From Streptosporangiaceae bacterium (GTDB taxonomy: Bacteria > Actinomycetota > Actinomycetes > Streptosporangiales > Streptosporangiaceae): a stretch of 40,522 nt of DNA. The notes beneath the pieces were generated by a model. It was not told the DNA's origin. It did no database searches and was given only the letters and a program-made list of their open reading frames with translations. The position numbers were made by a program, and so were the translations under genes. The stretch spans positions 1 through 40,522 of the forward strand of contig DASXME010000172.1 of the NCBI GenBank assembly GCA_036495825.1, written 5' to 3'. Of this stretch, positions 2,768 to 19,242 are shown one piece after another (position 1 is the stretch's first letter; every line of letters begins with the position of its first letter).

Positions 2768-2770
2768 AAA

Positions 2771-2844
2771 GAGCCGGATGACGGGAGACTGTCACGTCCG
2801 GATCTGAGGGAGCCGGGGGGTGAAACTCCCCCCGGCCACCCGAC
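2771..2844 (+). ncRNA. Group II intron domain V (2771-2804) and domain VI (about 2808-2844)
   Basis: GAGCCGGAUGAC-GGGAGACU-GUCACGUCCGGAUC forms a 34-nt D5-like hairpin starting with the AGC triad. The following GGGAGCCGGGGGG-UGAAACU-CCCCCCGGCCACCC hairpin has an unpaired A. Confidence 0.8.
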
Positions 2845-2986: not shown

Positions 2987-3058
2987 GTAATCGGCTTTGG
3001 GGGAACTTTGGTCTAGGAGCTGACGGGTCGGCTTCGCGAAGGCGTTAAGTCTGATGCT

Positions 3059-4108
3059 CTACGCCGGGGTGGCGCCTTCCCTCGCCTCGTAATACCGCGC
3101 GGCGACGTCGGCCGTCATCTCGCGCACCTGCTCGATTTCCTGCTCCGAGAGCCGGTCCTTGAACGAGCCCAGCGCTGCCCGCGAGTCCATCGGCCGGAAC
3201 GCGGTGCGGGACAGTCCGCCGCGCAGGCTCCACGCGTGCGAGGTCTCCGCTCGCCCGTGGTCGGTGGTCGCCGAGATGATGCGCTGCCGAGCCCGGTCGG
3301 TCCAGGTCAGGCCGCACGCCGCGTAGAGGTCACGGAATCCGCCCTCGGGGTCCTTGGCCAGATCCTCGTAACGCTGCATGTGCAGCAGGCCGGGCTCCCG
3401 CTCGTTCAGGTCGCCGAGCGCAGCATAGGTGACCCGCCAGAGCGTCGCGGCCTTGGCGACCGGGTCCGTCGAGTCGGCCGTCGCCTTGAGCTCGCTTGCG
3501 AACGGGCCGAGCAGGTCGCGCATGAGCAGCGGCTGATCCAGCAGCTCGTGCGGATTGGCCTGCCAGCCGAGCTTGCGCCAGCTGCCGACGAACGAGACCG
3601 GATGACGGACGCACACCACTACCCGGACCCCCAGCCGCCGGGCGAACCAGGGCGCCGACAGGGTGGCGAACGGGTCGTCGATAAGGGCGCGGCGGCGGAG
3701 GATCCGGCCGGCCGTGAAGGCGGTCGAGTACTTCGCCAGCCGGGCCAGGTCAGCCAGTGCGCGGTTGCGCTGCAGCTCGGCGACGAGGTGGTACCGCAGC
3801 CGCAGCGTGTCGGAGAACGCAGTCGCCCAGCGTTCGTCATTGTCCGGGCAGATGTACTGGTACCGGTGGGTTATCTCGGCGTTGAGCACGCCAGGAGAAT
3901 GGCCAGGCGGGCGCTGCGGGTTCATCGGCTCGTTGACGTAGACGACTTCACCGCCGGACTGCAGCATCTTGCCGATCCAGCTGGTGCCGCTGCGCGGCAG
4001 TCCGGTAACGAGAATTCCCTGATCCGCGGGCATGCCGGAAACGCCATCTCCTTTGCCGTTGACGGTCACCGGAGCTACCGGCACCAGCTGGGCTCGCGGC
4101 CCAGCCAT
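3059..4108 (-). CDS. PAPS-dependent sulfotransferase family protein
   Basis: N-terminal P-loop-like 5'-PSB motif GLPRSGTSWIGKM and 3'-PB-like VRHPVSFVGSWRK. The alternative start ATG 4033 (MPADQGILVTG...) would remove the 34-nt overlap with the upstream gene. Confidence 0.75.
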   Translation of the reverse strand: MAGPRAQLVPVAPVTVNGKGDGVSGMPADQGILVTGLPRSGTSWIGKMLQSGGEVVYVNEPMNPQRPPGHSPGVLNAEITHRYQYICPDNDERWATAFSDTLRLRYHLVAELQRNRALADLARLAKYSTAFTAGRILRRRALIDDPFATLSAPWFARRLGVRVVVCVRHPVSFVGSWRKLGWQANPHELLDQPLLMRDLLGPFASELKATADSTDPVAKAATLWRVTYAALGDLNEREPGLLHMQRYEDLAKDPEGGFRDLYAACGLTWTDRARQRIISATTDHGRAETSHAWSLRGGLSRTAFRPMDSRAALGSFKDRLSEQEIEQVREMTADVAARYYEAREGATPA

Positions 4109-5214
4109 TCGGCTAGCTGCTGGTTGTGCGGGCGGAAGTAGTCCTCAAGCTCCTCGCGGACCGCCGGCGGTATCGGCGCGGACCGCGGCCGGGCGTTGCG
4201 CTGCTTGAACTCGGGGTGCCCGGCCTGCGGCAGGCCCAGGAAGTCGAGCACCCCATCGTAGATCCGCGCCGGGTCGGTGAAGAACTCGCCGCTGTCCACG
4301 ACGTGGATGCGGTCCCGGCCGAAGACCTTCTCCAGGTTCTGCAGCTGCTCGGCGTAGTGCCCACGCAGCCGGTAGGCGTGATGCTGATGGCTGTAGCTGT
4401 AGTAGCGGGGGTCGGCCACGATCTTCTCGGCCTCGCCCGCCAGCCGGCTCTCTTCGAGTTCGATGGCCCGCGGGTACGACTCGGTCTCGAAGCCGAGAGC
4501 CGTCTCGTGCGCGTGCCCGGAGTAGCTGCGCTCGACCGGGTCGCGCAGCAGCACCAGCAGCTTCACGCCGGGCAGGTCACGGTTGATCCGCTCGGCGGCC
4601 AGCGGGTGCAGCATGTAATACGGGCTGGACTCGAACGCCATCGGCGCCGCGCCGGCCGCGCGCGCGGCGAACCGGGCGCGGACCCGGAGCGGGAAATGGC
4701 TCCGGTACCAGGCCATCCCGCGGTCGTAGGCGTTGTCGAAGTAGTGCACTTCCTGGTGCAGCACCGGGTGGAACACGGCCGGGTGGGCGCTGAGCGTACG
4801 GGACATGGACGTGGTGCCCGCCCGCTGCGCTCCGACGATCAGGAAGCTCGGCAGCATCCGGGCCCAGGAGGTGGGTATCCCGGCTGCCACCAGGGTGGTG
4901 TAGGTGGCGCGCTTGACCGGTCGCGGCAGCCGGTCGCGCCGGCGGGCCTGTGCTGACTGCGACTGTGCTGACTGCGACTGTGCTGATTGCGACTGGGTCG
5001 GCTTGGCCTGCGAACTGCCCGCCGCGGCTGTGCCCGCGGATGCGTCGGCCGAGGCCCGCTCCGCGGTCTGATCGCTCATGCTCATGCCGTCACCCCACTG
5101 GACGCGATGGCGCTGACTAGCTCGGCGTACTCCATGAGTCATCTCCCTCCACACCGGGCTGAGTGCGGGCTGGCAACGAGGGTCGCGAACGCGGTCGGAA
5201 CTGGTCTCCGGCAA
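4075..5214 (-). CDS. Sulfotransferase (Sulfotransfer_1, heparan-sulfate-sulfotransferase-like) with a low-complexity N-terminus
   Basis: FLIVGAQRAGTTSMSRTLSAHP, EVHYFDNAYDRGMAWYRSHFP, LLVLLRDPVERSYSGHAHE, LEDYFRPHNQQLAEWLGREPSW. The maximal ORF is given; internal starts ATG 5142 (after GGAGGGAG) or ATG 5085 (MSMSDQ...) are plausible. Confidence 0.85.
   Translation of the reverse strand: MPETSSDRVRDPRCQPALSPVWREMTHGVRRASQRHRVQWGDGMSMSDQTAERASADASAGTAAAGSSQAKPTQSQSAQSQSAQSQSAQARRRDRLPRPVKRATYTTLVAAGIPTSWARMLPSFLIVGAQRAGTTSMSRTLSAHPAVFHPVLHQEVHYFDNAYDRGMAWYRSHFPLRVRARFAARAAGAAPMAFESSPYYMLHPLAAERINRDLPGVKLLVLLRDPVERSYSGHAHETALGFETESYPRAIELEESRLAGEAEKIVADPRYYSYSHQHHAYRLRGHYAEQLQNLEKVFGRDRIHVVDSGEFFTDPARIYDGVLDFLGLPQAGHPEFKQRNARPRSAPIPPAVREELEDYFRPHNQQLAEWLGREPSWCR
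4948..4992 (-). repeat. 15-bp tandem repeat x3 (ctgtgctgactgcga; third copy has 1 mismatch) encoding (SQSAQ)n
   Basis: Read directly. It corresponds to QSQSAQSQSAQSQSAQ in the N-terminal tail of the 4075-5214 sulfotransferase. Confidence 0.9.
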
Positions 5215-5254
5215 GTGGCAGTGACCATGGCCTCGCAGGCGGACGGCGGCATGC

Positions 5255-6136
5255 TCATTGAGCCCAGCTCAGCGGCCTGCCGAGCAGCCTGGTCAGCTGT
5301 TCGTCGTGCGGGACATAATACTCCTCGAGCATTTGTCGCGTTTTGACTTGGATAGGTTCGCCCGGACGGGCGTTGAACTGGCCGAACCTGGCCGGCTCGT
5401 ACGGCCGCAGCCCTAGGAACGCCAGCAGATCCCGGTACGTCGCGGCAGGCCGGCCGAAGTAGGTCTCGCTGTCCATCACGTGTACCTGCTCGCGCGGGAA
5501 AAACGTGAAGGCGCGCTCGAGTTGCTCCGCGTAGTGACCGCGGTGCCGGTAAGAGTGATGGCGGTGCGACAGGCTCTCATAGGAGATGTCCTCCCGCATC
5601 CGGTCGATCTCGCCCGCGAGCCGCTGGTCCTCTAGCTCCAGCGCCTTCTCGAAGCTCGCCTCCTGCTCGAAGCCGCGGGCGTACTCGTGCTTGTAGGCGG
5701 AGAAGGCACGCTCGACCGGATCGCGCAGCATGACCACCAGCTTCGTCTGCGGCAGGTCGCGGGCGAGCCGCTCCAGCGCGAAGGGGTGGTACACGTAGTA
5801 GCCGCTGGCCTCGAAGGCGACCGGCCCGCCCGCCGCCCGCCGCCGGAGGCGCGCGATCTCGGCGATCGGGAAGTGCCCCTGATACCAGCGCATGCCGCGG
5901 TGGTAGTTCAGGTCGAAGTAGTTGACGCCCTTGCGGAACGTCGCCGGCATCAGCTGCGGGTGGGCCGACAGCATGCGAAACAGCGAGGTGGTGCCGCAGC
6001 GCGAGGCGCCGATCATGATGAAGGAGGGCAGCAGCCGCAGCGGCGCCGTGGCCTCGCCGAGCCCGGTGTACGCCTGCCGCCCGACGTGCCTCAGCTGCCT
6101 GGGCGTGATGTCACGCACGGTCATGACGGGCGGCAC
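5255..6136 (-). CDS. Sulfotransferase (Sulfotransfer_1, heparan-sulfate-sulfotransferase-like), paralogue of 4075-5214
   Basis: FIMIGASRCGTTSLFRMLSAHP, GVNYFDLNYHRGMRWYQGHFP, LVVMLRDPVERAFSAYKHE, LEEYYVPHDEQLTRLLGRPLSW. GGAGGTG lies upstream of ATG 6136. Confidence 0.88.
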   Translation of the reverse strand: MPPVMTVRDITPRQLRHVGRQAYTGLGEATAPLRLLPSFIMIGASRCGTTSLFRMLSAHPQLMPATFRKGVNYFDLNYHRGMRWYQGHFPIAEIARLRRRAAGGPVAFEASGYYVYHPFALERLARDLPQTKLVVMLRDPVERAFSAYKHEYARGFEQEASFEKALELEDQRLAGEIDRMREDISYESLSHRHHSYRHRGHYAEQLERAFTFFPREQVHVMDSETYFGRPAATYRDLLAFLGLRPYEPARFGQFNARPGEPIQVKTRQMLEEYYVPHDEQLTRLLGRPLSWAQ

Positions 6137-6148
6137 CTCCGCGAGCGG

Positions 6149-6994
6149 TCAATCCCAGCCCCAGCGCTGCCTGAGCTGAATGTCAAACTCCGCCTCCACG
6201 CCGGCGATCTCACCGTCGAGTCGCTCCCTGACGAAGGCGATGTCACCCGGCGACATCGCCGGCTTGGTGTCGCCGAGCGGCTTGTACAGCAGGCGCTCGA
6301 CCAGCTTGGACCGCTTGATGCGGCCGACCAGGTCGGCTCCGTCATGGCTGCGCACCCAGTTCGCGGCGTGCTTGGCGGCCGCGGCGAGGGGAAGCCAGCG
6401 GGCCCCGCTCGCGGGCAGCCTGGCCGCGAGATCATCGGGGCTGACGACCTGGCGGCCCACCTGGAGCCAGTCGGTAACCTCGTCGAGAAAGGCCTGCGGA
6501 TCGGCCTGCAGGTCATCGAAGACCGCGATGTGCAGCGCCTTGCGGTCGAAACTGCCCAGGTACCGGCGCAGCAGCGTCGCGTAGCGGCCCTCATCGAGCA
6601 GCACCGGCTCGTTCTGCGCCGTCTCGATAAAGGTCGGTGCGGCCAGCCCGTGCCGTTGCAGGTACAGGTACGAGGAGAATGCGCGGGCGGCCGGCTCGCG
6701 CAGGGTGACCATGAGGCGCACGTCAGGGCCGAGGCACTCGCGGATCCGCTCCGGCGCCTCGGTGTTCACCAGGTAGTCGGGGCAGACCTCGCCGATGATC
6801 TTGTGCTCGGGCCGGGAGCCACTGAATTGCGCGCCGTACCAGTCCAGGCCCCGGTCGTAGTACCGGCTGAAGAAGTAGAGATCCTTGGCCTCGCTGAGGT
6901 AGACCTCCGGATGCGATATCAGGACCTCGTGCAGCCAGGTGGAACCGGACTTGCCCGGGCCGATGTGCAAGAAGTTGGGCAGCTGCTGCGGCAT
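6149..6994 (-). CDS. Sulfotransferase (Sulfotransfer_1-like)
   Basis: FLHIGPGKSGSTWLHEVL, DLYFFSRYYDRGLDWYGAQF, MVTLREPAARAFSSYLY. AAGAGGA lies upstream of ATG 6994. Confidence 0.85.
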   Translation of the reverse strand: MPQQLPNFLHIGPGKSGSTWLHEVLISHPEVYLSEAKDLYFFSRYYDRGLDWYGAQFSGSRPEHKIIGEVCPDYLVNTEAPERIRECLGPDVRLMVTLREPAARAFSSYLYLQRHGLAAPTFIETAQNEPVLLDEGRYATLLRRYLGSFDRKALHIAVFDDLQADPQAFLDEVTDWLQVGRQVVSPDDLAARLPASGARWLPLAAAAKHAANWVRSHDGADLVGRIKRSKLVERLLYKPLGDTKPAMSPGDIAFVRERLDGEIAGVEAEFDIQLRQRWGWD

Positions 6995-7003
6995 CGGATC
7001 CTC

Positions 7004-9013
7004 TTACCCCATTCCGCGCCGGAACAGCCGGGCCAGTTTGAGCATCTGATCGGGATTGACGCCCGTCACCGCCTGCGCGAGCGCGATGTACGGGTAAGGC
7101 GACACCGGCCACCGGCTGATGGCCTTCGTCGCGTCACGGACGGCGGGTCCTCGCTGGCCGAGCGTTGACCGCGCGAACGCAATCTGCCCGAGCATGCGCG
7201 CGTGGCCGCGCCGGGAGGTGGCGAAGTCCGTGTGCTTGGCCAGCATGTACTCCAGGCCGGGCAGGGCGTTCTCCGATTTTCCGCGGTACCACGAGGTGGC
7301 GTTCTTCCTGATGTTCGCCAGCGGCGCGGCGATCAGGCCGACCCGTCCGGCCCGTGCCGCGCGCAGCACCCAGTCGTAGTCTTCCGAGTAGCCGTTCGGC
7401 AGTTCCTCATCGTAGGGGCCGGCCGAGGCGAACACTTCCCGCCGCATCACGAGCGTCGAGGAGTGCAGTTCCTTCACCCGGTTGCGGAGCAGCAGCTGAT
7501 AGCTGATCTCGTCGGACCGGCCACGCCAGTCATGGATCTTGTCGTCGGGCAGCAGCAGCCTGATGCCGGTGCCGACGACGAGGAGCCCGGGGTCACCGAG
7601 CAGCCGGTCGATCTGGAGCCGGAGCTTGGCCGAGTGCCAGGTGTCGTCGTCGTCGCAGGTGGCGATGAAGTCGCCGCGCGCCAGATCCAGGCCGGTGTTG
7701 CGGGCGCCGGCCAGGCCGGGTGAATGCGTGTTGCCGACCACGCGGACGCTGTGCCGCGGTGTGCCCAGCGCGATCAGGTCCTCATCCGGCGTCTCCCGGT
7801 CATGCACGACGATGATGTCCATGTCGCCCGGGTAGTCTTGCCCGACGACTGAGTTGATCGACTCCCTGACCAGCTCGGGACGCTCACGGGTCGGCATGAT
7901 CACGCTGACCAGCGGGCACGTCTTGTCCTGCTGGGCGGGAGACGGGACCGAAGGCGCCTTCGGCTCTGCCTCGGGCTGCGGCTTGTTGCCGAGCCGCCAG
8001 CCGTAGCGGACCAGCAGCGGGAGACCGACCGTGGTAACGACGGCGCGGTCACGCGGGGACATCCGCATCCGCCAGGCCTCGTCGGCGCGCAGGGTAATCT
8101 CGCCGCTGCTGAACCGGGACGGGTTGCCCGACAGGCCGTGGCTGCTGCCGAGCACGACGCGGCCGTCGCCGATATGCGCCAGGTCCGACGGCTGGGGGAA
8201 AATCCCGATGTCGGCCAGCGCCGACTCGACCGCCTGCCGCGGTGCCACGACGAAATCCTCGTACCGGATCCGGGTGACCTGCAGACCGCAGCGGCGCAGC
8301 AACTCGGCCTGGCCCTGGGTGCCCACCCACCGGGCAGCGGCCTCGGCGGGGATGTTGTTCGACATGTGGTCGGCCTGCGCCACGGCGTGCGGGCGCTCTA
8401 TCTGCTTGGTGAGCGAATGAGCCACCCCCCGCACGTCCCTGACCAGGTGTATCACCCGGATGTCTATCCCCGCGCGGTGCAGCGCGAGCGCCTGGACCGG
8501 CCACTTGCTCGCATCCACCACGTAATCGGCGCCGGCCTGGTCGGCGACGGCCCGGTACAGGGCCCGGTAGCTCTCGCCGTACTCGGCCACCTCGTCGCGG
8601 AAGCTGCCGCCGGCCAGCGGCAGGGCGAGCACCCGCGGCAGATGGCGCTGCCGCGCTATGCGGGTCTGCAGCTGATGAACCGCGGCCAGCTTGTCGGCGT
8701 CCCAGCCGCCGAAGGCGCGCTTGCCCACGCCGGTCCAGAACGGGCAGTCGGCGAAGGCCAGGCCGCAGCCGCATAGCTCGCCGCGCGGTGCGGTGCGGCG
8801 CCACAGGTCGATGAGCTCGCCGACGTTGACCAGGCCCGGTATGTCGCCGAGGACCCGTTCAAGCAGCGTGCTACCGGACCGGCCCGATCCCGCGATGTAG
8901 ATGACGGTCGGGTCGTGGCCACCGGCGGGCCGCCCCGCGTCCGTGCCGGACGCGGTCGCAGCACCCGGGGCCGTCATGACGGTTCCGGGTAGCTGCCTGC
9001 CCCTGCGGCTCAT
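7004..9013 (-). CDS. Bifunctional fusion: N-terminal sulfotransferase domain plus C-terminal family-2 glycosyltransferase domain
   Basis: The N-terminal part (about nt 8910-7993) has IYIAGSGRSGSTLLERVLG and VIHLVRDVRGVAHS. A Pro/Ala/Gln linker NKPQPEAEPKAPSVPSPAQQDKT follows (about 7992-7920). The C-terminal part has VSVIMPTRERPELVRESINSVVGQDY, DIIVVHDRE, GLAGARNTGL and the DxD-type ATCDDDDTW. AGGAGG lies upstream of ATG 9013. Confidence 0.85.
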   Translation of the reverse strand: MSRRGRQLPGTVMTAPGAATASGTDAGRPAGGHDPTVIYIAGSGRSGSTLLERVLGDIPGLVNVGELIDLWRRTAPRGELCGCGLAFADCPFWTGVGKRAFGGWDADKLAAVHQLQTRIARQRHLPRVLALPLAGGSFRDEVAEYGESYRALYRAVADQAGADYVVDASKWPVQALALHRAGIDIRVIHLVRDVRGVAHSLTKQIERPHAVAQADHMSNNIPAEAAARWVGTQGQAELLRRCGLQVTRIRYEDFVVAPRQAVESALADIGIFPQPSDLAHIGDGRVVLGSSHGLSGNPSRFSSGEITLRADEAWRMRMSPRDRAVVTTVGLPLLVRYGWRLGNKPQPEAEPKAPSVPSPAQQDKTCPLVSVIMPTRERPELVRESINSVVGQDYPGDMDIIVVHDRETPDEDLIALGTPRHSVRVVGNTHSPGLAGARNTGLDLARGDFIATCDDDDTWHSAKLRLQIDRLLGDPGLLVVGTGIRLLLPDDKIHDWRGRSDEISYQLLLRNRVKELHSSTLVMRREVFASAGPYDEELPNGYSEDYDWVLRAARAGRVGLIAAPLANIRKNATSWYRGKSENALPGLEYMLAKHTDFATSRRGHARMLGQIAFARSTLGQRGPAVRDATKAISRWPVSPYPYIALAQAVTGVNPDQMLKLARLFRRGMG

Positions 9014-9182
9014 GGCAGAACCTCCTGGTTGCGATTTTGCCGACGGGATCTGGCCGACGCCGTGGACGGCGGTGCGGCCGTCCCAGCTACCTGGTCACAG
9101 ATGAAGTACGCGTCTGCTAGAAACCCTACTGTGCTTGCTGGGCGAGCTGTGTTCTGCGTGAGTCCGGGAGGTAAACACATGG

Positions 9183-10124: not shown

Positions 10125-10155
10125 GGTTAACCTCGTGCCGGTTCCTGGGATGCCC

Positions 10156-10330
10156 GATGTTACCGGGCGGTCGCTATCGCTATCGGAAACTCATTCAAAA
10201 CCGAAGGACGGGTCAGCGTAGCCTCAGGTCATCCCAGGCTGCATTGATAATCAATCGAAGTTCGAATAAGTTTCCCGGTCACTAGACCGGAATCCCTGAT
10301 GTTACCGGGTGGCTGCTGCACGTTACCGGG
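10156..10330 (-). promoter_or_regulatory. Candidate promoter/operator region: three copies of GTTACCGGG (two as exact 12-mers GATGTTACCGGG) around a 13-bp perfect palindrome ATTGATAATCAAT
   Basis: 12-mers at 10156-10167 and 10298-10309, third copy at 10322-10330, palindrome at 10243-10255, tandem gctatc x2 at 10172-10183. This is the AT-richer intergenic region just upstream of the sulfotransferase gene block. Confidence 0.35.
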
Positions 10331-12667: not shown

Positions 12668-12901
12668 TTCTCTCCTGGCCCTTTAGCTCCGCTTTGCCCG
12701 CCGTTGGCCTGCAAGCCCCCCGCAGGTCACACTGTCTTCCATGAGTAAGACTCCCGAGGGAGGCGATTGGGTCACACGCATCCGGCATCTTTTTTCATTC
12801 CCCGGAAGATCTGGCTGCGCGGGCCCAGGTCAGAAGCAAAGATTCACTCAGCGTAACTCAGTGAGGCCCCGGCCGGCCGGCCCGATGACAACAAACTGGC
12901 A

Positions 12902-14839
12902 TCAATGCGCCGATAAGTCGCTGGACGTGCGCACCTGCCGTACCCGGCGGGCGAGGGACGACACTCCGGGCATCGTCGACAGCTTGAGCACGCCGCCGAA
13001 TTTCCACAGCCCGGCCAGGTAGGCAAGGCTCCCGGCCACGATAGAGATCCCCAGGGACACGAAGCCGGGCCCGATCGCGATGCGGAACAGCCCCGGGATG
13101 GCGCCGAAGCACACCGCGCACAGCGCGCAGGCGGTGAACGTGCCGCGCCCGATGGGATGCAGCCGGAACACCACTGCCAGCTGGATCAGCGGCATCAGGT
13201 TGCTCACCACGATGGCCACGGCCCAGCCGATCGCGGCACCGGTGATCCCGTACCTGGGGATCAGCGCCAGGTCCACGCCGATGTTCACGCCGACGGCCAG
13301 CAGGCCGTTCACCAGGCTCCAGCTGCTGCGCCCGGTGGTGATCAGGACCATGTCGACCTGGCCGCAGGCCGACGCGAATAGCTGGGTGAGGCCGAGGATG
13401 ATCATCACGGTGGCCCCGGCGTCGTAGCCCTTGCCGAATACGGCCAGCACCGCGGGCCCGTAGATCACCGCCAGCAGGTACAGCGGCCAGGTGAGCAGGA
13501 TGAGCCAGCCGGTGGTGACCAGGTAGATGACGTTCGCGTTGCGCTTGTCGCCGGCCGTGAACAGCTCGGTGAACCGGGGCTGGGCCGCCGTGCTGATCGC
13601 CATGTTCCCGAGCTGGCCCGCGACCAGGAACCTGGTGGCCGCGGTGTACACGGCCGCGGCGAGCGGTCCCTTGATGAGGGCCACCAGCACGATGTCCATC
13701 CGCTGCAGGATGATCGACGCGAGGTTCGCGACGGCCCGCGGCGTGGTGAACCGCCAGAAGCCCTTGGGGTTCGCGTTGGCCAGCTGGCGCTGTGCCATCC
13801 GCCTGCCGGTGCGGGTGTCTTCCGGCCGCCGGACCGGCCGCCCGCTGTCGGGCGACCGTCCCCAGGCCGGCGAGGGCACCGGAGTGGACAGCGCGAGCAG
13901 CGCGGCGACCTCGGGCGGGAGGTCGGGCATGGTCGCGCGCCGCGGCCCCTTCCGGCGGCGGACGCGGCGCAGCCACACGTAGGAGATGACCGCGGCCGGG
14001 ATCCAGGGGAGCGCCCACAGCGGCGCGAGCAGCGTGGCGCTGCCCGCCCCCACCGCGACCGCCATGCACGCCACCTGGAGGAGCGGCCGGCCGATCTTCT
14101 CCACCATGACGGTGGGCCGCATGTCGCGGTAGCCCCGGGTGGCGCCGAGGAACGTGTTCTCCAGCGCCGCGAACAGCAGCGTGAGGCTCAGCAGGCGCAG
14201 CGCCTCGGCCACGGCCCCGGGACTGGCGGCGGCACCGCCCTTGCTCCCTGAATTCTTGGCCAGCAGCACGTGCGCCAGCGGTCCGGCGAAGGCGAGCATG
14301 CCGATCGTGAGCAGCACCGAGCCCACGATCACCGGGATCACCGCGGCGCGCGCGATGGCCCGGATCCTGCGCTCCTCGCCGAGCGAGCGCAGCCGGGCGA
14401 TGAAGTAGACCAGGCCGACGTTGGCGCCGAGCGTGGCCAGCGCCTGGACGATCAGGTAGGCCGAGGTCGCGGTGAAGAACGCGCCCGCGATGGTCTTGTC
14501 AAAGCGATTGGTGACCATGACGGAGACGGCCAGCGTCGCCACTGCGGAAACGGCAGCGCCCAGGATGTTGAGCGTGCCGCCCCTGGCCACCTCGGCGAGC
14601 TGCGGCTTCCCGGACTGATCCTGACCCGCTCCGGCCTTTCCCGGCCCGGCCGGGCCCGGCCCGCTCCCTCCGGCCCGGCCCGTACGAGGCTGATGCGCCG
14701 GACCGGCCGGCCCCGCGCCGCGCTGGCCGACCGCGCTCGTCGCGCCCGGCCTGCCTCGAGCGCCGGATCCGGCCTGCGCGGATGCCTCACCGGGCGGGGC
14801 ACCCGGCCCCGATCCCGCTGCCTCGGAACGTCCTCTCAC
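12902..14839 (-). CDS. Polysaccharide biosynthesis protein / Wzx-type oligosaccharide flippase (MOP superfamily) with a Gly/Pro/Ala-rich N-terminal extension
   Basis: About 100 aa of low-complexity sequence, then many hydrophobic helices (LNILGAAVSAVATLAVSVMVTNRF...AGAFFTATSAYLIVQALATLGANVGLVYFIARL...). A basic central loop and a second helix bundle ending ...LAYLAGLWKFGG. This layout is typical of Wzx-like flippases. Confidence 0.7.
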   Translation of the reverse strand: MRGRSEAAGSGPGAPPGEASAQAGSGARGRPGATSAVGQRGAGPAGPAHQPRTGRAGGSGPGPAGPGKAGAGQDQSGKPQLAEVARGGTLNILGAAVSAVATLAVSVMVTNRFDKTIAGAFFTATSAYLIVQALATLGANVGLVYFIARLRSLGEERRIRAIARAAVIPVIVGSVLLTIGMLAFAGPLAHVLLAKNSGSKGGAAASPGAVAEALRLLSLTLLFAALENTFLGATRGYRDMRPTVMVEKIGRPLLQVACMAVAVGAGSATLLAPLWALPWIPAAVISYVWLRRVRRRKGPRRATMPDLPPEVAALLALSTPVPSPAWGRSPDSGRPVRRPEDTRTGRRMAQRQLANANPKGFWRFTTPRAVANLASIILQRMDIVLVALIKGPLAAAVYTAATRFLVAGQLGNMAISTAAQPRFTELFTAGDKRNANVIYLVTTGWLILLTWPLYLLAVIYGPAVLAVFGKGYDAGATVMIILGLTQLFASACGQVDMVLITTGRSSWSLVNGLLAVGVNIGVDLALIPRYGITGAAIGWAVAIVVSNLMPLIQLAVVFRLHPIGRGTFTACALCAVCFGAIPGLFRIAIGPGFVSLGISIVAGSLAYLAGLWKFGGVLKLSTMPGVSSLARRVRQVRTSSDLSAH

Positions 14840-14876
14840 CCGTGCCAGCTTGACGGCACCCCCCTACCCCGGGCGG

Positions 14877-16403
14877 TCACGTAGCGCCAGCGGTGAGGAC
14901 CCGCGGTCCGCCATCGACTCCGGGGCCGGACCGGCCTAGGCCCGGCTGGCCATCAGGGCCGGCCGCCTGAGCCTCCTTCTCGCGCCGCATCGCCATGTCG
15001 TTGCGCCAGAGTATGACGTAGGCGAGCAGGGTGAAGGAGATCGGCGGCCCGACCGCCTGATAGGAGATCATGAAAACGAACCCGAGCAGGATGACGAGGA
15101 CTCCCACCATCCCGTAGGGCGTCTTGTCCCGCCGGAATCGCCATACGGCATAGCCGAAGAAGCCGAGGTAGAGCCCCGTGCCGAGCAGGCCGTTGGTGAC
15201 CAGGAGCATCCACAGCTGCCCGTTGCCGCCGATGCTCCTCGAACCGCAGCTCTTGCATGTCTGCGTGCGGCCGACCGCGATCGAGTTCGTGCTGCCCAGC
15301 TCGTGCCGGGTGTCGCCGTAGCCGATGATGGGGGACGAGATCGCGTCCTGAATGGCGATGCCGGACAGCGACGCGCGCACTGAGTTGCTCTTGCCGTTAT
15401 GCAGCCGCGTGGTGATCACGTTGCCGACGGGGGTGGCGATGATCACGACCCCGGCTATCGCGACGACCGCGGCGAAGACCCCCAGCATGGCCAGCTTGCC
15501 CCGGGCGGCCATGCGCACCGCCAGGTAGACCAGGCTGCACGCGACGCCGAGCCACAGCCCGCGGTCGAGTGAGTACAGCAGGGGCGCCATCGCGACGGCG
15601 AACACGATCACGCACCAGCGCCGCTGCCTGCGGGTGGTGGCGTAGCTCCACCAGGCCACGATCAGCCAGGGCAGCAGGATGGCCAGGCAGTTCCCCCACA
15701 TGTTGGTGTAGTCGAACGGCGCTTTCGGCCGGCCTGCCGCGTAGCCGAGCAGGTTCTGGATCTCGGAGGACCCCGGGTGCAGCAGGACCGCAAGCTGGGC
15801 GTTGCCGTTCTGGATGCTCTGCGGGATGACGTAGGCCAGCGGTGAGGTGAACGAGAACGTGGGGTCGGCCATGCCGAGCAGGCCGCCGGCGACCGCGTAG
15901 AACCCGACCAGGCCGAGCAGCGCGGCCAGCTTCCGGCGCGGGAACTCAGCCTCGGTCAGGTTGCCCATGTACAGGAACACGGCGGTGACGCCGATGTAGT
16001 CGGAGCCGCGGAGCCCGTAGGAGATCAGCCGGTTCGAGACCGAGCTGACGACCGTCTGCGGGGCCGTCTGGCCGATCGCCGTGACGCTCAGGATCATCAC
16101 GATCAGGAACATCGCCCAGAGCGCGAACCCGGGCGGCAGCTTGATCGGGCGCTGGCGGTGGGCCCGCCAGCGGTACATCGTCCTGATCGTGGGGAAGGCC
16201 AGCAGGATAGGCATGTAGTCGGCCACCCCGAGTACCCACCACAGCGGGTAGAGGATCAGGTATCCGCTCACCGGCCAGCCCGGGTGCCGGGCGAACCAGT
16301 TGCCGGCGGGCCTGCTCTCGTCGGCCGGCAACTGGCCAACAAGGCGCTCGTCCGGCTCGCCACCGCGGCCGCTGTGCTGGCCTCGCGTCAGCAGCGTCGT
16401 CAT
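14877..16403 (-). CDS. O-antigen ligase/polymerase (Wzy)-like polytopic membrane protein
   Basis: Multi-helix hydrophobic protein with one larger loop (GYGDTRHELGSTNSIAVGRTQTCKSCGSRSIGGNGQLWMLL). It lies between a flippase and a PCP gene. The assignment rests on architecture and context only. Confidence 0.55.
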   Translation of the reverse strand: MTTLLTRGQHSGRGGEPDERLVGQLPADESRPAGNWFARHPGWPVSGYLILYPLWWVLGVADYMPILLAFPTIRTMYRWRAHRQRPIKLPPGFALWAMFLIVMILSVTAIGQTAPQTVVSSVSNRLISYGLRGSDYIGVTAVFLYMGNLTEAEFPRRKLAALLGLVGFYAVAGGLLGMADPTFSFTSPLAYVIPQSIQNGNAQLAVLLHPGSSEIQNLLGYAAGRPKAPFDYTNMWGNCLAILLPWLIVAWWSYATTRRQRRWCVIVFAVAMAPLLYSLDRGLWLGVACSLVYLAVRMAARGKLAMLGVFAAVVAIAGVVIIATPVGNVITTRLHNGKSNSVRASLSGIAIQDAISSPIIGYGDTRHELGSTNSIAVGRTQTCKSCGSRSIGGNGQLWMLLVTNGLLGTGLYLGFFGYAVWRFRRDKTPYGMVGVLVILLGFVFMISYQAVGPPISFTLLAYVILWRNDMAMRREKEAQAAGPDGQPGLGRSGPGVDGGPRVLTAGAT

Positions 16404-16476
16404 GATCGGCTCTCCGTCTCTGGGGAAGCCCAGGTGTCCTGCGCGTTCGCGAGTTCTCGTGCCTCGGTCGCCATGG

Positions 16477-17529
16477 TTACCCTGACGCGCTGACCGAAGT
16501 ACCCTCGGGCGCGAGGATAACCCAGGTCGAACCGGGCTGAAACGCCATCGGCTGCCCGCTGGCGTCGAAGTAGTTGGTGACGTCTCCGATGTGCGGCTTG
16601 GACCAGGTGCCGGTGGCCGCAGTGCCGCCGCTCCCGCCCGCAGCGGCGGCGGAAAATACCTGCGCGTGGCCGCCGCCGATCACTCGGGCGCTCTGCACCG
16701 AGATCCCTAGGTGACGGCTCTCGAAGACCGTCTTGAAGGGGACCGTCTGGACCACCAGGTTCGCCACCTCCACCCGGGGGCCGCCGCTGCTGAGCACCCA
16801 CCGGTTAGCGCTGGCGTCGAAACTCCAGTTCTGTGTGCCCAGGCCGGGAGCAGAGATCGCGACCCCGGTCGGCCGCGTCACCCCGCTGGGCGCGAGCGTG
16901 CTGGCACCGGTGTCCGAGCCCCGGTACCTGAACAGCGGCGGCGGTGCCTGGGCGCCGGTGACCGCGCCCAGCAGGCTGGTCGTCGATGCGGTCAGGCCCG
17001 TGGCCGCTGCCGTGTAGGCGGTCGGATGAACCGTATAACTGGCGGCCTTGACGGCGGACTTGTCGAGAATGTTGATGAAGCCCGTGCTGCCGCCGTTGTA
17101 GCCGGTGACCGGATGCAGCACGGCCAGGATCGCGGCGTCCTCAGGGCGGGCGCCCGTCACCGGGCCCACCGCGCTGACCGACTTCGACTGGAATACGGCG
17201 AGGTAACGCACGGTCGGCGTGGTGAAGTCCTGGTACACCACATCGGCCGAGCCGAGCCCCTCCGGGCTCGATCCCGAGACGAGCACGGCCACGGCAGGCT
17301 TGCCCGCCGCCGCGGAACTGGCCGCGGCCAGGTTGGTCAGCGGGTCCAGCGGGGCGGTGCTCGTGGTCTGGTCGGTCCCCGTTGACGTGGGCGTGGGCGT
17401 CGGGGACGACGGCGGGACCGATGAGATCGGGTTGGGCGCACCGGCCCCGCACGCCGTGACGGCGAGGCCGGCCGCCGCAGCGAGCCCGATCATGGTCCAG
17501 CGCACCTGCCGTGAAGGCGTGCGTGGCAT
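16477..17529 (-). CDS. DUF3048-family lipoprotein
   Basis: Signal peptide with lipobox (LAVTAC), a Pro/Thr-rich linker, then AVLVSGSSPEGLGSADVVYQDFTTPTVRYLAVFQS, which resembles the DUF3048 N-terminal block. Confidence 0.6.
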   Translation of the reverse strand: MPRTPSRQVRWTMIGLAAAAGLAVTACGAGAPNPISSVPPSSPTPTPTSTGTDQTTSTAPLDPLTNLAAASSAAAGKPAVAVLVSGSSPEGLGSADVVYQDFTTPTVRYLAVFQSKSVSAVGPVTGARPEDAAILAVLHPVTGYNGGSTGFINILDKSAVKAASYTVHPTAYTAAATGLTASTTSLLGAVTGAQAPPPLFRYRGSDTGASTLAPSGVTRPTGVAISAPGLGTQNWSFDASANRWVLSSGGPRVEVANLVVQTVPFKTVFESRHLGISVQSARVIGGGHAQVFSAAAAGGSGGTAATGTWSKPHIGDVTNYFDASGQPMAFQPGSTWVILAPEGTSVSASG

Positions 17530-17532
17530 AGG

Positions 17533-19242
17533 TCAGTTGCCCGGAACTCTGCCGGCCGGGTCGCCCTGCCCCTCGCGGCTGCGGATCCGTCGCTCCCGCC
17601 TGTTGTCCGGCCGGTCGTCGGGCGCGGACGGCGGGAGCTCGGCCTGCCCGCGTCCCGCGGTCGCGCTCGGCGCGGAGTCGTCGGGACCAAGCCGCGGCCC
17701 GCCGGCCCTGGGCGGCCGCACGCTGACCCGGGAGCTGATGGCCGACAGCACCGCGCTGCCGAGCACCGGAGTCCGCAGCTGGCGCAGGCGCCTGATGCAC
17801 TCGGCCGCGTCGTCGCGCGTGGTGCGCGGGACCTCCACGGCGATGAGCGCGGCGTCGGCGAACTCGGCCAGGGCGAAGGTGTCGGCACCGTCGTCGGTGG
17901 CCTGCGCGTCGATGATCACGTAGCGGGCGTCCCTGCGCAGCTGCGAGGTGAGCGCCTGGGTCCGGTCATGCTGCAGGTTGTAGACGGCCAGCGAGGTGTC
18001 CGCGCCCGGCGTGATCACCCAGAGGCCGGGAATGCCGGCCGGCCCCCTGGCCACATCCCGGACGGTCGCGCGCCCGGCGAGCACCTCGGACAGCCCGCGG
18101 CCATCCTCGACGCCGAGCATCTCGGGGGCCACGCTGTCGTCCAGGTTGGCGCAGACCAGCACGACTTCACCGTGCGTCCTGGCCATGGTCGCGGCCAGGT
18201 TGGCCGCCACCACGCTGCCACCAGGGCCCGACGTCGTCCCGGCCACCAGCAGGACGTGGCTTCCCTCGCCCAGTGACGCGGCCACCGCGTGCGCGAGCTC
18301 GGTGAAGGCCTGCCCGGTGCGTGACCTCGGCGAGGCGAGCGAGAGCTGCTGGCTGAACGCCTTCCTGGGCACGTTGAGCAGCAGCGGCAGGCCGAGCAGA
18401 CGCTCCGCGTCGCGGGCGGTGTGGATCTTCTTGTCGCGCCGGTCCCAGATGAACGCGCCGATCAGGCCGAGCAGCAGCCCGGCGACGAGCCCGCTCGGCA
18501 GGATCAGCGACTTCTTGGGGCTGGTCGCCTTGCCGGGCACCCCCGCGGGAGACAGGATCGATCCGCCGGAATTCTTGGCGCCGGCCCCGGCCAGCGTGCT
18601 GATCTGGCCGGTGAGGCTCTTCAGCTGGGTGTTGACCGAGCCCAGGATGGTCTCGTCGGTGGCCCGCTGCGAGGAGTTAGAGGGCAGCCCGCTGATCTTC
18701 GTGTTCAGCGAGGACGCCTGCTGCGTCAGAGAGGTCACCTGCGTCTGCAGCGTCTTGACCTGGGCCTGGGTCTGCGCCACCGAGGTGTTGCTCCGGTTCT
18801 GCAGGTACGCCTGACCGAAGGCGTTCGCGCAGGCGGCCGCTCCCGTCGCCGTGGGTGCACCACAGGTGATCAGGAGCACCGAGGAGTTCGGCGGGACGGC
18901 AACCGAGACGTTCTGAGTGAGCTGGAACGGCGTGAGCGTGCTGTGCATGATCTTGGCCGCGGGTACCGCGACGGTGTCGGAGGTGACAACCTGTGCCTCG
19001 GTGTCGAGGTTGACCGTCGCGCCGTTGGTGCGGCTGCCCTGGACCACATTCGCGCCGTTGTCAGCCCCGGTGGGCGTGACGCTCACCTTCACCGTCGCGT
19101 CATATGTCTTTTTCGCGACGGTGGTGTAGCCGAAGGCCCCAATCAGGCCGATGATCGTCAGGCTCACCACGATCAGCCAGCGTCGGCGTAGTACGCCGAC
19201 GTAGTCGGCCACCTGGAATGAGTCCGGAAGACCGGGATTCAT
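17533..19242 (-). CDS. Polysaccharide co-polymerase (Wzz/PCP) with a C-terminal BY-kinase-like, apparently degenerate P-loop domain
   Basis: Wzz-type N-terminus (FQVADYVGVLRRRWLIVVSLTIIGLIGAFGYTTVAKKTYDATVKVSV), a long Gln/Thr/Ser-rich periplasmic region and a second TM (LILPSGLVAGLLLGLIGAFIW). The ATPase-like domain has VLLVAGTTSGPGGSVVAANLA in place of Walker A. GAGGAG lies upstream of ATG 19242. Confidence 0.75.
   Translation of the reverse strand: MNPGLPDSFQVADYVGVLRRRWLIVVSLTIIGLIGAFGYTTVAKKTYDATVKVSVTPTGADNGANVVQGSRTNGATVNLDTEAQVVTSDTVAVPAAKIMHSTLTPFQLTQNVSVAVPPNSSVLLITCGAPTATGAAACANAFGQAYLQNRSNTSVAQTQAQVKTLQTQVTSLTQQASSLNTKISGLPSNSSQRATDETILGSVNTQLKSLTGQISTLAGAGAKNSGGSILSPAGVPGKATSPKKSLILPSGLVAGLLLGLIGAFIWDRRDKKIHTARDAERLLGLPLLLNVPRKAFSQQLSLASPRSRTGQAFTELAHAVAASLGEGSHVLLVAGTTSGPGGSVVAANLAATMARTHGEVVLVCANLDDSVAPEMLGVEDGRGLSEVLAGRATVRDVARGPAGIPGLWVITPGADTSLAVYNLQHDRTQALTSQLRRDARYVIIDAQATDDGADTFALAEFADAALIAVEVPRTTRDDAAECIRRLRQLRTPVLGSAVLSAISSRVSVRPPRAGGPRLGPDDSAPSATAGRGQAELPPSAPDDRPDNRRERRIRSREGQGDPAGRVPGN

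Follow-up and report, generated by a model that had tools for sequence, protein, structure and literature searches.

Six successive sulfotransferase genes occupy positions 3059–10124 on the minus strand of a 40.5-kb window (the whole stretch of DNA analysed) from an uncultured soil actinomycete of the Streptosporangiaceae, alongside genes for a GT2 glycosyltransferase domain, a small-molecule kinase, a PAP2-family protein, a Wzx-type flippase, a Wzy-like protein, a DUF3048 lipoprotein and a PCP protein. The locus, which spans 3059 to about 20949, perhaps with 23585 as its outer limit, is interpreted as an expanded wps-1-type, Wzx/Wzy-dependent actinomycete glycan cluster whose product would be a multiply sulfated, possibly phosphorylated, extracellular or wall-associated polysaccharide (rough probability 0.65). 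Since the PAPS-type sulfotransferases are genuine and are set in a Wzx/Wzy/PCP locus, the product is best read as a lipid-linked repeat-unit glycan that carries sulfate. This analysis established the domain identities, the conservation of the PAPS motifs, the soluble or membrane topology of the proteins, synteny across genomes, and the kinase and GT2 folds. The original prediction was thus partly supported: a sulfated glycan stands as its core, whilst novelty, an extreme enzyme ratio, an accessory island and activity of all six enzymes were either unsupported or in want of qualification.

The gene content and order of the locus match those of wps-1 from Actinoplanes missouriensis, the two being likened by content and order alone. 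Knock-outs of wps-1 (AEM 2026) show that it is needed for formation of the sporangium and the sporangium matrix, and the matrix likewise depends on the neighbouring sulfate adenylyltransferase/APS kinase, AMIS_7390 (PMC13390465). A sulfated polysaccharide was predicted as the wps-1 product, which the Actinoplanes authors themselves describe as chemically undemonstrated (PMC13390465), and chemical demonstration is lacking for every member of the wps-1-type family; with a matching cluster and the same prediction published in 2026, the kind of locus is no longer new, the one in the window being an expanded form of it. Sulfotransferase-bearing Wzx/Wzy loci do yield sulfated exopolysaccharide in the case of synechan (PMC8205485), a comparison that was aptly drawn at the outset. 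Clusters related in sequence and similarly organised are found in metagenome-assembled genomes of Streptosporangiaceae and other actinomycetes and, among cultured genera, in Catellatospora, Micromonospora and Natronosporangium; over 20 genomes contain the gene set.

As originally proposed, all six ORFs match Pfam Sulfotransfer_3 and/or Sulfotransfer_1, with scores of 41.6–85.4 bits against a gathering cut-off of 27 bits. The P-loop and R-x7-S strings first quoted for them are present in the translations, and the PSB and PB motifs of all six are conserved across orthologues of 50–98% identity. The six domains did not arise by recent duplication: ST2 and ST3 alone are close (49% identity), ST4 is far from both, and the rest are mutually unalignable by BLASTP. 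A hydrophobic-segment topology check found no transmembrane segments in the sulfotransferases, the GT2 protein or the kinase.

ST1 (3059–4108, minus strand), a cytoplasmic sulfotransferase, covers the full Sulfotransfer_3 model (52.3 bits) and keeps its PSB (GLPRSGTS) and PB (VRHPVSFVGS) motifs in five orthologues. Its PDB sequence matches are weak and confined to sulfotransferases (2zq5, E 9e-4, presumably a mycobacterial Stf1-type enzyme), and within the family it is an accessory gene, present in Streptosporangiaceae-type loci and absent from Micromonosporaceae. ST2, ST3 and ST4, also on the minus strand, match the heparan sulfate 3-OST/NDST carbohydrate sulfotransferases with E values of 1e-12 to 1e-22. 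ST2 (4075–5214; Sulfotransfer_1 48.1 bits, Sulfotransfer_3 44.5 bits) retains a 3-OST-like Glu/His motif, QEVHYFD; its N-terminus carries a low-complexity SQSAQ repeat and an uncertain start codon, and a 15-nt tandem repeat lies within the gene at 4948–4995. ST3 (5255–6136; 52.5 and 46.8 bits), the paralogue of ST2, matches 3rnl (E 5e-22) as well as NDST1 and 3-OST-1/3/5 (E 1e-14 to 1e-12). Its PAPS motifs are intact and motif comparison shows the canonical catalytic Glu/His replaced (KGVNYFD), with Gly where 3-OST has the catalytic Glu, as in the core WpsH-type enzymes, and with the His also missing in ST3. At least one sulfotransferase domain may therefore be inactive or employ another base, and the notion of six active enzymes is accordingly less than certain. 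ST4 (6149–6994; 42.6 and 28.5 bits) matches 3-OST-1/3 in the PDB (E 3e-16) and keeps its PSB motif (GPGKSGST) and a KDLYFFS motif in orthologues. ST6 (9183–10124, minus strand) has the highest score of the six (Sulfotransfer_3, 85.4 bits), is weakly similar to TPST (PDB, E 3e-3) and NoeE (E 9e-4), and is limited to the window and its nearest relative, the 95%-identical locus L001, which holds the sole orthologue seen.

The remaining sulfotransferase domain, ST5, is fused to the GT2 domain in one protein (7004–9013, minus strand; Sulfotransfer_3 41.6 bits, Glycos_transf_2 72 bits), which is the core marker protein of the locus family, with more than 120 full-length homologues at 57–78% identity. 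The ST5 half (about residues 35–340) belongs to a CurM/OLS/TPST-like clade with an invariant Cys triad, and its profile matches the OLS sulfotransferase 4gox (E 6e-15), the CurM sulfotransferase (5e-11) and TPSTs (1e-9). The second half (about residues 366–669) is a GT-A fold glycosyltransferase. In the AF2 model of the fusion (pLDDT 84) its matches with probability 1.0 are 9jma (PglI according to the sequence table, AvpGT according to the fold table), WrtF and SpsA, and its overall likeness is to enzymes of lipid-linked or polymer glycans (9jma, WrtF and TarS/TarP).

These assignments bear on an alternative in which the polysaccharide is lightly sulfated or unsulfated, several of the sulfotransferases being inactive relics, redundant condition-specific alternatives or enzymes for non-glycan acceptors; the TPST-like ST6 might act on protein tyrosines, for example, and ST1 on a metabolite. 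The replaced Glu/His of ST3 and the resemblance of ST5 and ST6 to tyrosylprotein and polyketide rather than carbohydrate sulfotransferases are in keeping with it, as is the mild phenotype of the Actinoplanes wpsB (sulfotransferase) knock-out (PMC13390465). The number of sulfotransferases also ranges from 1 to 6 among otherwise similar loci (1–3 in low-count loci, 2–3 in Micromonosporaceae, 6 in the window), so that the core pathway can evidently do without most of them. However, the strict conservation of the PAPS motifs in orthologues of all six at 50–75% identity points to purifying selection on cofactor binding, the genes are co-oriented and tightly packed with the glycan genes (gaps of 9–200 nt), and ST5 is physically joined to a glycosyltransferase, so that little or no sulfation is considered unlikely. 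A hypersulfated Wzx/Wzy-dependent glycan is a plausible product, with the proviso that six sulfates per two- or three-sugar unit would near the limit of available hydroxyls, for which reason some of the enzymes may be alternative, sub-stoichiometric or directed at other acceptors.

Among the partner genes first proposed, those for the GT2, PAP2, flippase, DUF3048 and PCP proteins were confirmed by Pfam, whereas the Wzy_C and APH matches fell below cut-off and draw their support from orthologues and a fold search. The kinase (10323–11708, minus strand) is a WpsI-type small-molecule kinase of the APH/choline-kinase/maltokinase fold, assigned by fold and conserved residues. Its gene most likely starts at the ATG at 11708, which overlaps the PAP2 stop codon (ATGA), and not at 11921. 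In the window its APH match reaches 18.9 bits (cut-off 23.2); K, E, HGDxxxxN and DxE are invariant across 41 homologues, and the AF2 model (pLDDT 87) matches homoserine kinase, APH(3'), LicA, maltokinase and FN3K in Foldseek with probability 1.0. The family comprises 1,939 clusters at 50% identity (E<=1e-30), the gene is kept in related loci, and the probable substrate of the enzyme is either a repeat-unit sugar or a sugar precursor. The adjacent PAP2-family membrane phosphatase (11705–12667, minus strand; 39.6 bits) has weak undecaprenyl-diphosphatase matches, is also encoded in L001, L007 and L015, and probably serves to recycle the carrier lipid as a polyprenyl-diphosphate phosphatase.

The Wzx-type flippase of the MOP superfamily (12902–14839, minus strand) matches MatE at 39.8 bits (cut-off 24.9) and Polysacc_synt weakly, contains 12 hydrophobic segments and is kept in most related loci that have enough flanking sequence; as its N-terminal 80 or so annotated residues are Gly/Pro-rich, the true start may lie downstream. 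Beside it is encoded the Wzy-like polytopic membrane protein (14877–16403, minus strand), whose Wzy_C match of 22.6 bits lies under the 31.7 cut-off, whose orthologues in L023 and L025 have unmarked Wzy_C matches, and whose gene adjoins the kinase gene in relatives, a conserved arrangement. The DUF3048 protein (16477–17529, minus strand), an extracytoplasmic lipoprotein with a signal segment followed by a lipobox-like VTAC, has both its N- and C-terminal domains above cut-off; in L001, L007, Catellatospora and Micromonospora its gene is flanked by those for the PCP and Wzy proteins. The PCP protein, a polysaccharide co-polymerase (17533–19242, minus strand), combines a Wzz N-terminal domain (38.9 bits) and GNVR with a cytoplasmic BY-kinase-like domain (residues 302–505; TIGR01005/01007/Wzc-type matches), and its transmembrane segments (24–42 and 247–265) give the classic two-TM topology. 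In the BY-kinase-like domain the Walker A lysine is lost and the Tyr cluster absent, and every orthologue has a degenerate Walker A.

Two neighbouring genes had been overlooked. The first, on the plus strand at 19723–20949 and thus divergently transcribed, encodes a WpsE-type GH26-family glycoside hydrolase lipoprotein, identified by an orthologue profile: the single-sequence Pfam match is weak (E 0.079), whereas the profile of eight orthologues matches C. thermocellum Lic26A (2bv9) over 276 residues (E 6e-45). Two Glu residues, E214 and E334, are invariant, the gene is conserved among related loci, and the enzyme probably trims or releases the polymer. The second (21096–23585, minus strand) encodes a secreted protein with a beta-propeller (DUF5122, 47.7 bits) and ricin-B lectin repeats (Ricin_B_lectin, 143.8 bits). 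In L001, Catellatospora, Micromonospora and Natronosporangium, too, the locus is adjoined by propeller proteins, which bear ricin, malectin or CBM96 domains, a recurrence suggesting that the protein in the window may bind or process the glycan, although its membership of the glycan system is uncertain.

Pfam Wzy_C spans O-antigen ligases, O-oligosaccharyltransferases and polymerases, and the Wzy-like protein could be a polymerase or could instead resemble an O-antigen ligase. It is conceivable that no free polymer is made and that the Wzy_C-domain protein, acting as a ligase or oligosaccharyltransferase, couples a short sulfated oligosaccharide, or a wall-teichuronic-acid-like chain with a TagO/TagA-type linkage unit, to one of several acceptors: peptidoglycan, a lipid or a secreted protein, for instance the neighbouring lectin/propeller. 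The weakness of the Wzy_C match is compatible with this, as are the GT26 (TagA/WecG-type) gene of the nearest relatives, a hallmark of wall-polymer linkage units, and the lectin/propeller proteins that consistently adjoin the locus. Such attachment is nonetheless improbable: a full-length Wzz and GNVR PCP, of a kind that goes with polymerisation, is kept directly upstream, Pfam and NCBIfam detected no LCP-family ligase gene in the window, and several relatives have a Bac_transf primer typical of EPS/CPS.

Within the 40.5-kb window there is no priming transferase, GT26 or PAPS-synthesis gene, in agreement with what had been noted for priming and PAPS supply, but the window appears to be an entire contig and gene absence is thus weak evidence. 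In L001 (95% nucleotide identity, colinear), a WecG/TagA-type GT26 gene follows 36 nt past the ST1 stop codon, and colinearity breaks precisely at this site, where the window gives way to a group II intron and the end of the contig. The 6:1 ratio of sulfotransferase to glycosyltransferase domains, described as extreme, is thus in part a contig-edge effect, the GT26 gene of L001 following the last sulfotransferase; in other relatives, genes for GT26, GT32 or Alg13/14 occur, as does one for a priming enzyme of the Bac_transf type. The flanking gene taken for a mobile intron/HNH gene has reverse transcriptase and maturase domains only, with no HNH domain. Nor is an accessory island borne out: GC content stays level throughout the window, and the menG/menJ/nuo neighbourhood is common to L002 and L015, relatives at only about 30–75% protein identity, which argues for an old, stable location. 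It is very improbable that a small lipid, such as a sulfomenaquinone-like compound (cf. mycobacterial Stf3), is the sulfotransferase substrate, next to an unrelated Wzx/Wzy cluster. In favour of this are the genes at 23683–25859 for a MenJ-like reductase and menG (345.9 bits, above cut-off), and the presumed Stf1-type match of ST1. Synteny disfavours it (the Micromonosporaceae ST/GT/Wzx/Wzy/PCP module has no nearby men or nuo genes), the sulfotransferase genes are interspersed among, or fused to, glycan genes, and ST2–4 are of carbohydrate type.

The route proposed for the multiply sulfated polysaccharide is an inference as regards its substrate, the sequence of its steps, how many sulfates are really added and what DUF3048 and the lectin do. 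A priming enzyme encoded off-contig, either a Bac_transf phosphoglycosyltransferase as in relatives or a housekeeping WecA/TagO-type enzyme, would place the first sugar-phosphate on polyprenyl phosphate, and GT26 (WecG/TagA-type; its gene cut off in the window and directly past ST1 in the nearest relative) and the GT2 of the ST5-GT2 fusion would lengthen it into a short repeat unit. Different positions would be sulfated at the cytoplasmic face by as many as six soluble PAPS-dependent sulfotransferases, which represent four or five subfamilies, and the APH-fold kinase would add phosphate or make a sugar-1-phosphate precursor. The decorated unit would then be flipped across the membrane by Wzx and polymerised by the Wzy-like protein under control of the PCP with its degenerate kinase-like domain, the carrier lipid being recycled by PAP2 and the chains trimmed or released by the GH26 lipoprotein.

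The locus is not a one-off, and represents a conserved family that occurs widely among soil actinomycetes and extends to cultured genera; the heavily sulfated surface sugar polymer predicted here would be one that nobody has isolated so far.

The minus-strand genes of the window are co-oriented from 19242 down to 3059 (ORF listing and translation), and a profile-HMM check bears out the original prediction of six consecutive sulfotransferase genes at 3059–10124, with every domain scoring above the Pfam curated cut-off. These are ST1 (3059–4108), ST2 (4075–5214), ST3 (5255–6136), ST4 (6149–6994), ST5 (7004–9013), which is fused to a C-terminal GT2 domain, and ST6 (9183–10124). They are followed on the same strand by genes for a kinase-like protein (10323–11708, start revised), a PAP2 protein (11705–12667), a MatE/Polysacc_synt flippase (Wzx, 12902–14839), a Wzy_C-like membrane protein (14877–16403), a DUF3048 lipoprotein (16477–17529) and a polysaccharide co-polymerase (PCP) with Wzz/GNVR domains and a BY-kinase-like tail (17533–19242). 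Two neighbouring genes had been overlooked, namely a divergently transcribed GH26 lipoprotein gene (19723–20949, plus strand) and a minus-strand gene for a secreted DUF5122 β-propeller with ricin-B lectin repeats (21096–23585; Pfam). Beyond these, menG, encoding demethylmenaquinone methyltransferase (23683–24414, plus strand, above the equivalog cut-off), and a MenJ-like gene for a geranylgeranyl-reductase-family reductase (24447–25859, plus strand) lie directly upstream of nuoA-N. The ORFs at 23505–24428 (plus strand) and 19239–20228 (minus strand) were rejected as spurious Arg/Pro-rich frames, the real genes being menG and the GH26 gene respectively.

All six domains match Sulfotransfer_3 (41.6–85.4 bits against a Pfam cut-off of 27), and in five the Sulfotransfer_1 score exceeds its own cut-off (22) as well. 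The P-loop and R-x7-S strings originally reported are present in the translations and conserved outside the window. The 5'-phosphosulfate binding (PSB) loop, G-x-x-[KR]-[SAC]-G-[ST]-[ST], expected after the first β-strand, is present in each domain and is kept in most orthologues across the related loci L001–L026, whilst the 3'-phosphate binding (PB) motif R-x7-S takes the form [LVI]R[DEH]x6S in all six domains and their orthologues; the two motifs are retained in orthologues of other genomes at 50–98% identity. In the AF2 model of ST5, the PSB loop sits between strand 36–41 and helix 48–56. Judged by BLASTP, the six domains are not recent duplicates: ST2 and ST3 (49% identical) are the sole close pair, ST4 is a distant relative of both, and ST1, ST5 and ST6 are mutually unalignable.

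The nearest solved structures to ST2–ST4 are heparan sulfate 3-O-sulfotransferases, the sulfotransferase domain of NDST and the bacterial sulfotransferase 3rnl (E 1e-12 to 5e-22). The ST5 domain was placed by a profile search against PDB sequences, since the top 50 fold-search matches of the full ST5-GT2 model were to GT2 domains alone; the profile matches the sulfotransferases of OLS and CurM as well as those for tyrosylprotein (E 6e-15 to 1e-9). ST1 and ST6 have weak PDB matches, to sulfotransferases alone.

Alignment to 3-OST, NDST and 3rnl shows that ST2 keeps the Glu/His catalytic base of the E-x-H motif (QEVHYFD). At the same position ST3 has KGVNYFD, in which Glu is replaced by Gly and His by Asn, and ST4 has KDLYFFS; the core heparan-sulfate-type (HS-type) sulfotransferase of Micromonosporaceae reads KGVHYFD. 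ST3 has thus lost both canonical catalytic residues with its PAPS motifs intact, and may use another base or be non-catalytic. The ST5-type domain carries a C-x-C-G-x5-C-P-F-W motif (C81, C83 and C90 in the window protein) that is invariant in the 43 close and 15 distant homologues aligned and absent from the other five sulfotransferases of the window; it may be a metal-binding site. ST2 also has an N-terminal extension in which a 15-nt tandem repeat (4948–4995, 3.2 copies, 96% match) encodes a low-complexity SQSAQ tract, and the true position of its start codon is uncertain.

The export machinery is recognisable to varying degrees. The Wzx protein matches MatE (39.8 bits, cut-off 24.9) and, weakly, Polysacc_synt, and has 12 hydrophobic segments. 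The Wzy-like protein scores below the Wzy_C cut-off in the window (22.6 against 31.7 bits), its orthologues in L023 and L025 being confident Wzy_C matches; from its sequence, polymerase and ligase roles would both fit and cannot be told apart. The PCP matches Wzz (38.9 bits, cut-off 25.5) and GNVR and has two transmembrane segments, and its BY-kinase-like tail has a degenerate Walker A motif (GTTSGPGGS, residues ~330–345) from which the lysine is lost in the window and in every orthologue. The C-terminal tyrosine cluster is also absent, so regulation by tyrosine autophosphorylation is unlikely, and the domain looks like a family-wide pseudokinase.

The sulfotransferases, GT2 domain and kinase have no hydrophobic segments, which places sulfation in the cytoplasm, the site of PAPS. 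Sulfate would be added to the lipid-linked unit or its precursors on the cytoplasmic side, before flipping. The AF2 model of the kinase (pLDDT 87) superposes on homoserine kinase, APH(3'), LicA, maltokinase and FN3K, and the invariant Lys, Glu, HGDxxxxN and DxE residues are kept; the protein probably works as a kinase of sugars or small molecules and not as a protein kinase. In its GT2 half, the fusion is similar to enzymes that act on lipid-linked oligosaccharides or wall polymers. As a single sequence, the GH26 lipoprotein gave no significant Pfam match; an eight-sequence orthologue profile matched the GH26 lichenase Lic26A at E 6e-45, with the two catalytic Glu residues invariant, and the gene is conserved beside the locus in other genomes. 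DUF5122/Rax2-like secreted β-propellers with ricin-B, malectin or CBM96 modules are found beside the locus in several families (L001, 17015–21115; L011, 11934–17988; L025, 13730–16801; L026, 13355–15910), adjoin it in all complete relatives examined, and may bind or process the glycan.

Loci of this kind form a conserved family. For the ST5-GT2 fusion, searches gave more than 120 full-length homologues with 57–78% identity, nearly all from soil metagenomes, and a genome scan recovered 21 loci. By tblastn of all window proteins, the nearest relative, in a Streptosporangiaceae MAG (L001, 95% identical in nucleotides), is colinear with the window at 89–98% protein identity, and recognisably the same gene set occurs in MAGs of other Streptosporangiaceae, 'Actinomycetes', Actinomycetales and Pseudonocardiales and in four cultured Catellatospora species. 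This shared set consists of the PCP, DUF3048, Wzy, kinase, an HS-type sulfotransferase, Wzx, GH26 and an ST5-type sulfotransferase beside or fused to GT2. Neighbourhood look-ups added Catellatospora sp. TT07R-123, Micromonospora sp. WMMA2032 and Natronosporangium hydrolyticum, and a kinase profile retrieved 1,939 50%-identity clusters at E<=1e-30, which indicates that the system is common. Homology searches thus describe a family that is widespread in soil metagenomes and is also carried by culturable Micromonospora, Catellatospora and Natronosporangium.

What varies most is the number of sulfotransferase domains, which reaches six in the window and L001, against five in L002, L005 and L010, four in L003, L008 and L023, three in Micromonospora, two in Catellatospora and Natronosporangium, and one or two in L007, L012 and L015; these are counts of domains, and the short, truncated loci L004, L006 and L009 give minima. 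An ST5-type and one HS-type enzyme form the core. The accessory members are ST1, ST4, a further copy of the HS-type and ST6, the last seen only in the window and L001. The glycosyltransferase complement differs too: some relatives have genes for Alg14 and Alg13, the latter as a fusion to the sulfotransferase in Catellatospora. Within its locus, the Streptosporangiaceae relative L003 includes (14065–16287 and 5596–6498) genes for a GHMP kinase, a SIS isomerase and a HAD phosphatase, which by their domains make up a heptose-type nucleotide-sugar pathway, and a Caps_synth glycosyltransferase, pointing to a different backbone sugar in that variant.

The closest described system is the sporangium-related wps-1 cluster of Actinoplanes missouriensis (AMIS_7280-7380, WpsA-K; Tezuka & Ohnishi, AEM 2026, PMC13390465). 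It encodes a GT2 protein (WpsA), a sulfotransferase (WpsB), GT26 (WpsC), DUF4262 (WpsD), GH26 (WpsE), a methyltransferase (WpsF), Wzx (WpsG), a heparan-sulfate-type sulfotransferase (WpsH), a kinase-like protein (WpsI), Wzy (WpsJ) and Wzz (WpsK) (PMC13390465). Knock-outs of nearly all wps genes distort the sporangia, as does deletion of the adjacent CysN/CysC-type sulfate adenylyltransferase/APS kinase gene AMIS_7390, and the authors predict a sulfated polysaccharide, whose chemical verification they describe as still awaited (PMC13390465).

The window was compared with wps-1 through the domains and gene arrangement published in PMC13390465, and its assignment to the same family is supported by sequence links to other Micromonosporaceae loci together with matching content and order. 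The reversed wps order K-J-I-H-G-F-E corresponds to Wzz-Wzy-kinase-ST-Wzx-MT-GH26 (MT, methyltransferase); Natronosporangium has this order with the methyltransferase and no GH26 match, and Micromonospora and Catellatospora have it with GH26 and without the methyltransferase. Shared with the window are a GT2 beside a sulfotransferase, an HS-type sulfotransferase, a protein-kinase-like/APH protein, Wzx, Wzy, GH26, a Wzz/PCP with a C-terminal export/kinase-like domain and, in the nearest relatives of the window though not in the window itself, GT26. By content, WpsA/WpsB would correspond to the fused ST5-GT2, the two halves of which are encoded apart but side by side in Catellatospora, Micromonospora and Natronosporangium. 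The likely counterparts of WpsH are ST2/ST3, which are 50–55% identical to the Micromonosporaceae sulfotransferase encoded between the kinase and Wzx genes, whilst WpsI would correspond to the window kinase, its fold confirmed by the model, and WpsE to the window GH26, identified by its profile match to the solved lichenase.

There are also clear differences. wps-1 has two sulfotransferase domains as opposed to six, and the window genes are all co-oriented in a rearranged order, include PAP2 and DUF3048 genes, and lack the methyltransferase, DUF4262 and an adjacent CysNC-type gene, with no GT26 on this contig. The window host is an uncultured Streptosporangiaceae-like organism, in which Actinoplanes-type sporangia may not form. 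Literature searches on DUF3048 and on Micromonosporaceae sulfotransferases yielded nothing useful. The novelty lies in how extremely the sulfotransferases have expanded and diversified, in the fusion of ST to GT2, and in the view of the family as a whole, some carriers of which can be cultured.

Of the extreme 6:1 ratio of sulfotransferases to glycosyltransferases first proposed, the six sulfotransferases are borne out; with the GT26 of L001 counted, 6:2 is the safer figure. A GT26 gene of the WecG/TagA type is present in L001, L002, L003, L005, L007 and L008 and absent from the window, where a permissive tblastn of positions 1–3100 found no GT26 remnant and no priming transferase. Colinearity with L001 stops at 3056, directly past the ST1 stop codon, and the GT26 gene of L001 lies 36 nt beyond this point, convergent with ST1; in its place the window runs through ~200 nt of unrelated sequence into a group II intron and on to the end of the contig. 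That contig, of 40,522 bp, appears to be covered by the window in full. Because the GT26 gene lies at the colinearity break and the contig ends there, the one-glycosyltransferase picture is at least partly an effect of the contig boundary or of rearrangement. On the side where the window has the intron, L001 carries the GT26 gene and three propeller/lectin genes. The intron RNA spans 964–2844 (plus strand, Rfam matches to D1-D4 and D5/D6), ~200 nt past the ST1 stop, and its ORF at 1466–2767 (plus strand), originally described as an intron/HNH gene, encodes RT and maturase domains alone, with no HNH or other endonuclease domain found by Pfam. Positions 1–960 have an unusually high GC of 0.79, contain no convincing ORF and match none of the related loci; they may be an intron target site, an assembly artefact or something else.

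The reported lack of priming and PAPS-supply genes stands for the window: tblastn found no Bac_transf homologue in the 40.5 kb, and Pfam and NCBIfam scans of its ORFs found no CysN/CysC-type gene. For the wider family it holds in part, as a Bac_transf priming enzyme adjoins the locus in L007, L019, L022 and L023, whilst no CysN/CysC-type gene is listed within 10 kb of the locus in L022, L023, L025 and L026. WecA is encoded away from many O-antigen clusters and, by analogy, the priming transferase for the window locus could be encoded elsewhere.

To our knowledge, synechan is the sole bacterial Wzx/Wzy/PCP and sulfotransferase system with a chemically proven sulfated EPS. Its xss locus in Synechocystis sp. 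PCC 6803 (Maeda et al., eLife 2021, PMC8205485) resembles the window in its Wzx/Wzy/PCP pathway and its in-cluster cytoplasmic sulfotransferases of distinct subfamilies. In xss, 8 glycosyltransferases, its own priming enzyme among them, stand beside 2 sulfotransferases (PMC8205485), the inverse of the ratio in the window (6 ST : 1 GT, or 2 GT in the nearest relative). The window also lacks the OPX/outer-membrane step, as expected for a Gram-positive host, and an XssQRS-type regulator, whilst its kinase, GH26, DUF3048 and PAP2 proteins fall outside the xss component list (PMC8205485). The nearest solved animal relatives of ST2, ST3 and ST4 are the NDST sulfotransferase domain and 3-OST-1/3/5 (E 1e-12 to 1e-16), which share the PSB and PB motifs with ST2–ST4, the catalytic E-x-H with ST2, and the use of several regiospecific sulfotransferases for one glycan. 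The animal enzymes work in the Golgi lumen on the completed polymer, whereas the soluble, cytoplasmic enzymes of the window would have to act before export, and ST3 and ST4 diverge at the catalytic-base positions. The same superfamily includes the mycobacterial Stf0-Stf3 and rhizobial NodH/NoeE enzymes, bacterial sulfotransferases that likewise depend on PAPS; ST1 resembles 2zq5, a mycobacterial Stf1-type chain, and ST6 resembles NoeE, both marginally (E 1e-3). Stf0-Stf3 and NodH/NoeE modify glycolipids, menaquinone or Nod factors and are not known to occur within Wzx/Wzy/PCP loci.

A sulfated glycan made by a Wzx/Wzy/PCP locus, the central claim of the original prediction, remains the best-supported reading, with a predicted product in every family member. 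In its strongest form, soil Streptosporangiaceae would produce a GAG-like hypersulfated polysaccharide with about two sulfates per sugar in a two- or three-sugar repeat, possibly with phosphate, sulfated at the stage of a lipid-linked unit in the cytoplasm by five or six regiospecific carbohydrate sulfotransferases; this is tentative, with a probability of roughly 0.3. As a two- or three-sugar repeat has few more than six free hydroxyls, six enzymes are unlikely to achieve full occupancy; more plausibly, they act as alternatives or sulfate the repeat only in part. The proposed accessory island, as a recent acquisition, is rejected: GC stays at 0.67–0.75 over the whole locus and core-gene flank without a step, and the position beside menJ/nuo is common to the distant L002 and L015, whose locus proteins are ~30–75% identical to those of the window, which together argue for long residence. 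A link to sulfomenaquinone, suggested by the adjacent menG/menJ, is rejected since the module occurs without men genes in Micromonosporaceae.

Chemical proof of bacterial sulfated polysaccharides comes mainly from cyanobacteria and a few Gram-negatives of marine origin, and those of actinomycetes have so far only been predicted genetically (wps-1, 2026). If the hypersulfated reading is true, the product would exceed every known bacterial polymer in its density of sulfate, and no sulfated polysaccharide of a Gram-positive bacterium would have been chemically defined before it. The locus would also supply, ready for use, a set of soluble bacterial relatives of the heparan sulfate 3-OST/NDST sulfotransferases; being soluble and cytoplasmic, such enzymes, if active, would be of relevance to the enzymatic synthesis of sulfated glycans. 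By its sequence links to other loci and its gene content and order, the window locus is placed in the family that was reported in 2026 and that soil actinomycetes commonly carry, and the culturable relatives are hosts in which the sulfation hypothesis is directly testable. Should all six enzymes be active, the product would be a heparin-like bacterial polyanion, with a bearing on metal or water retention and on phage or predator defence in soil.
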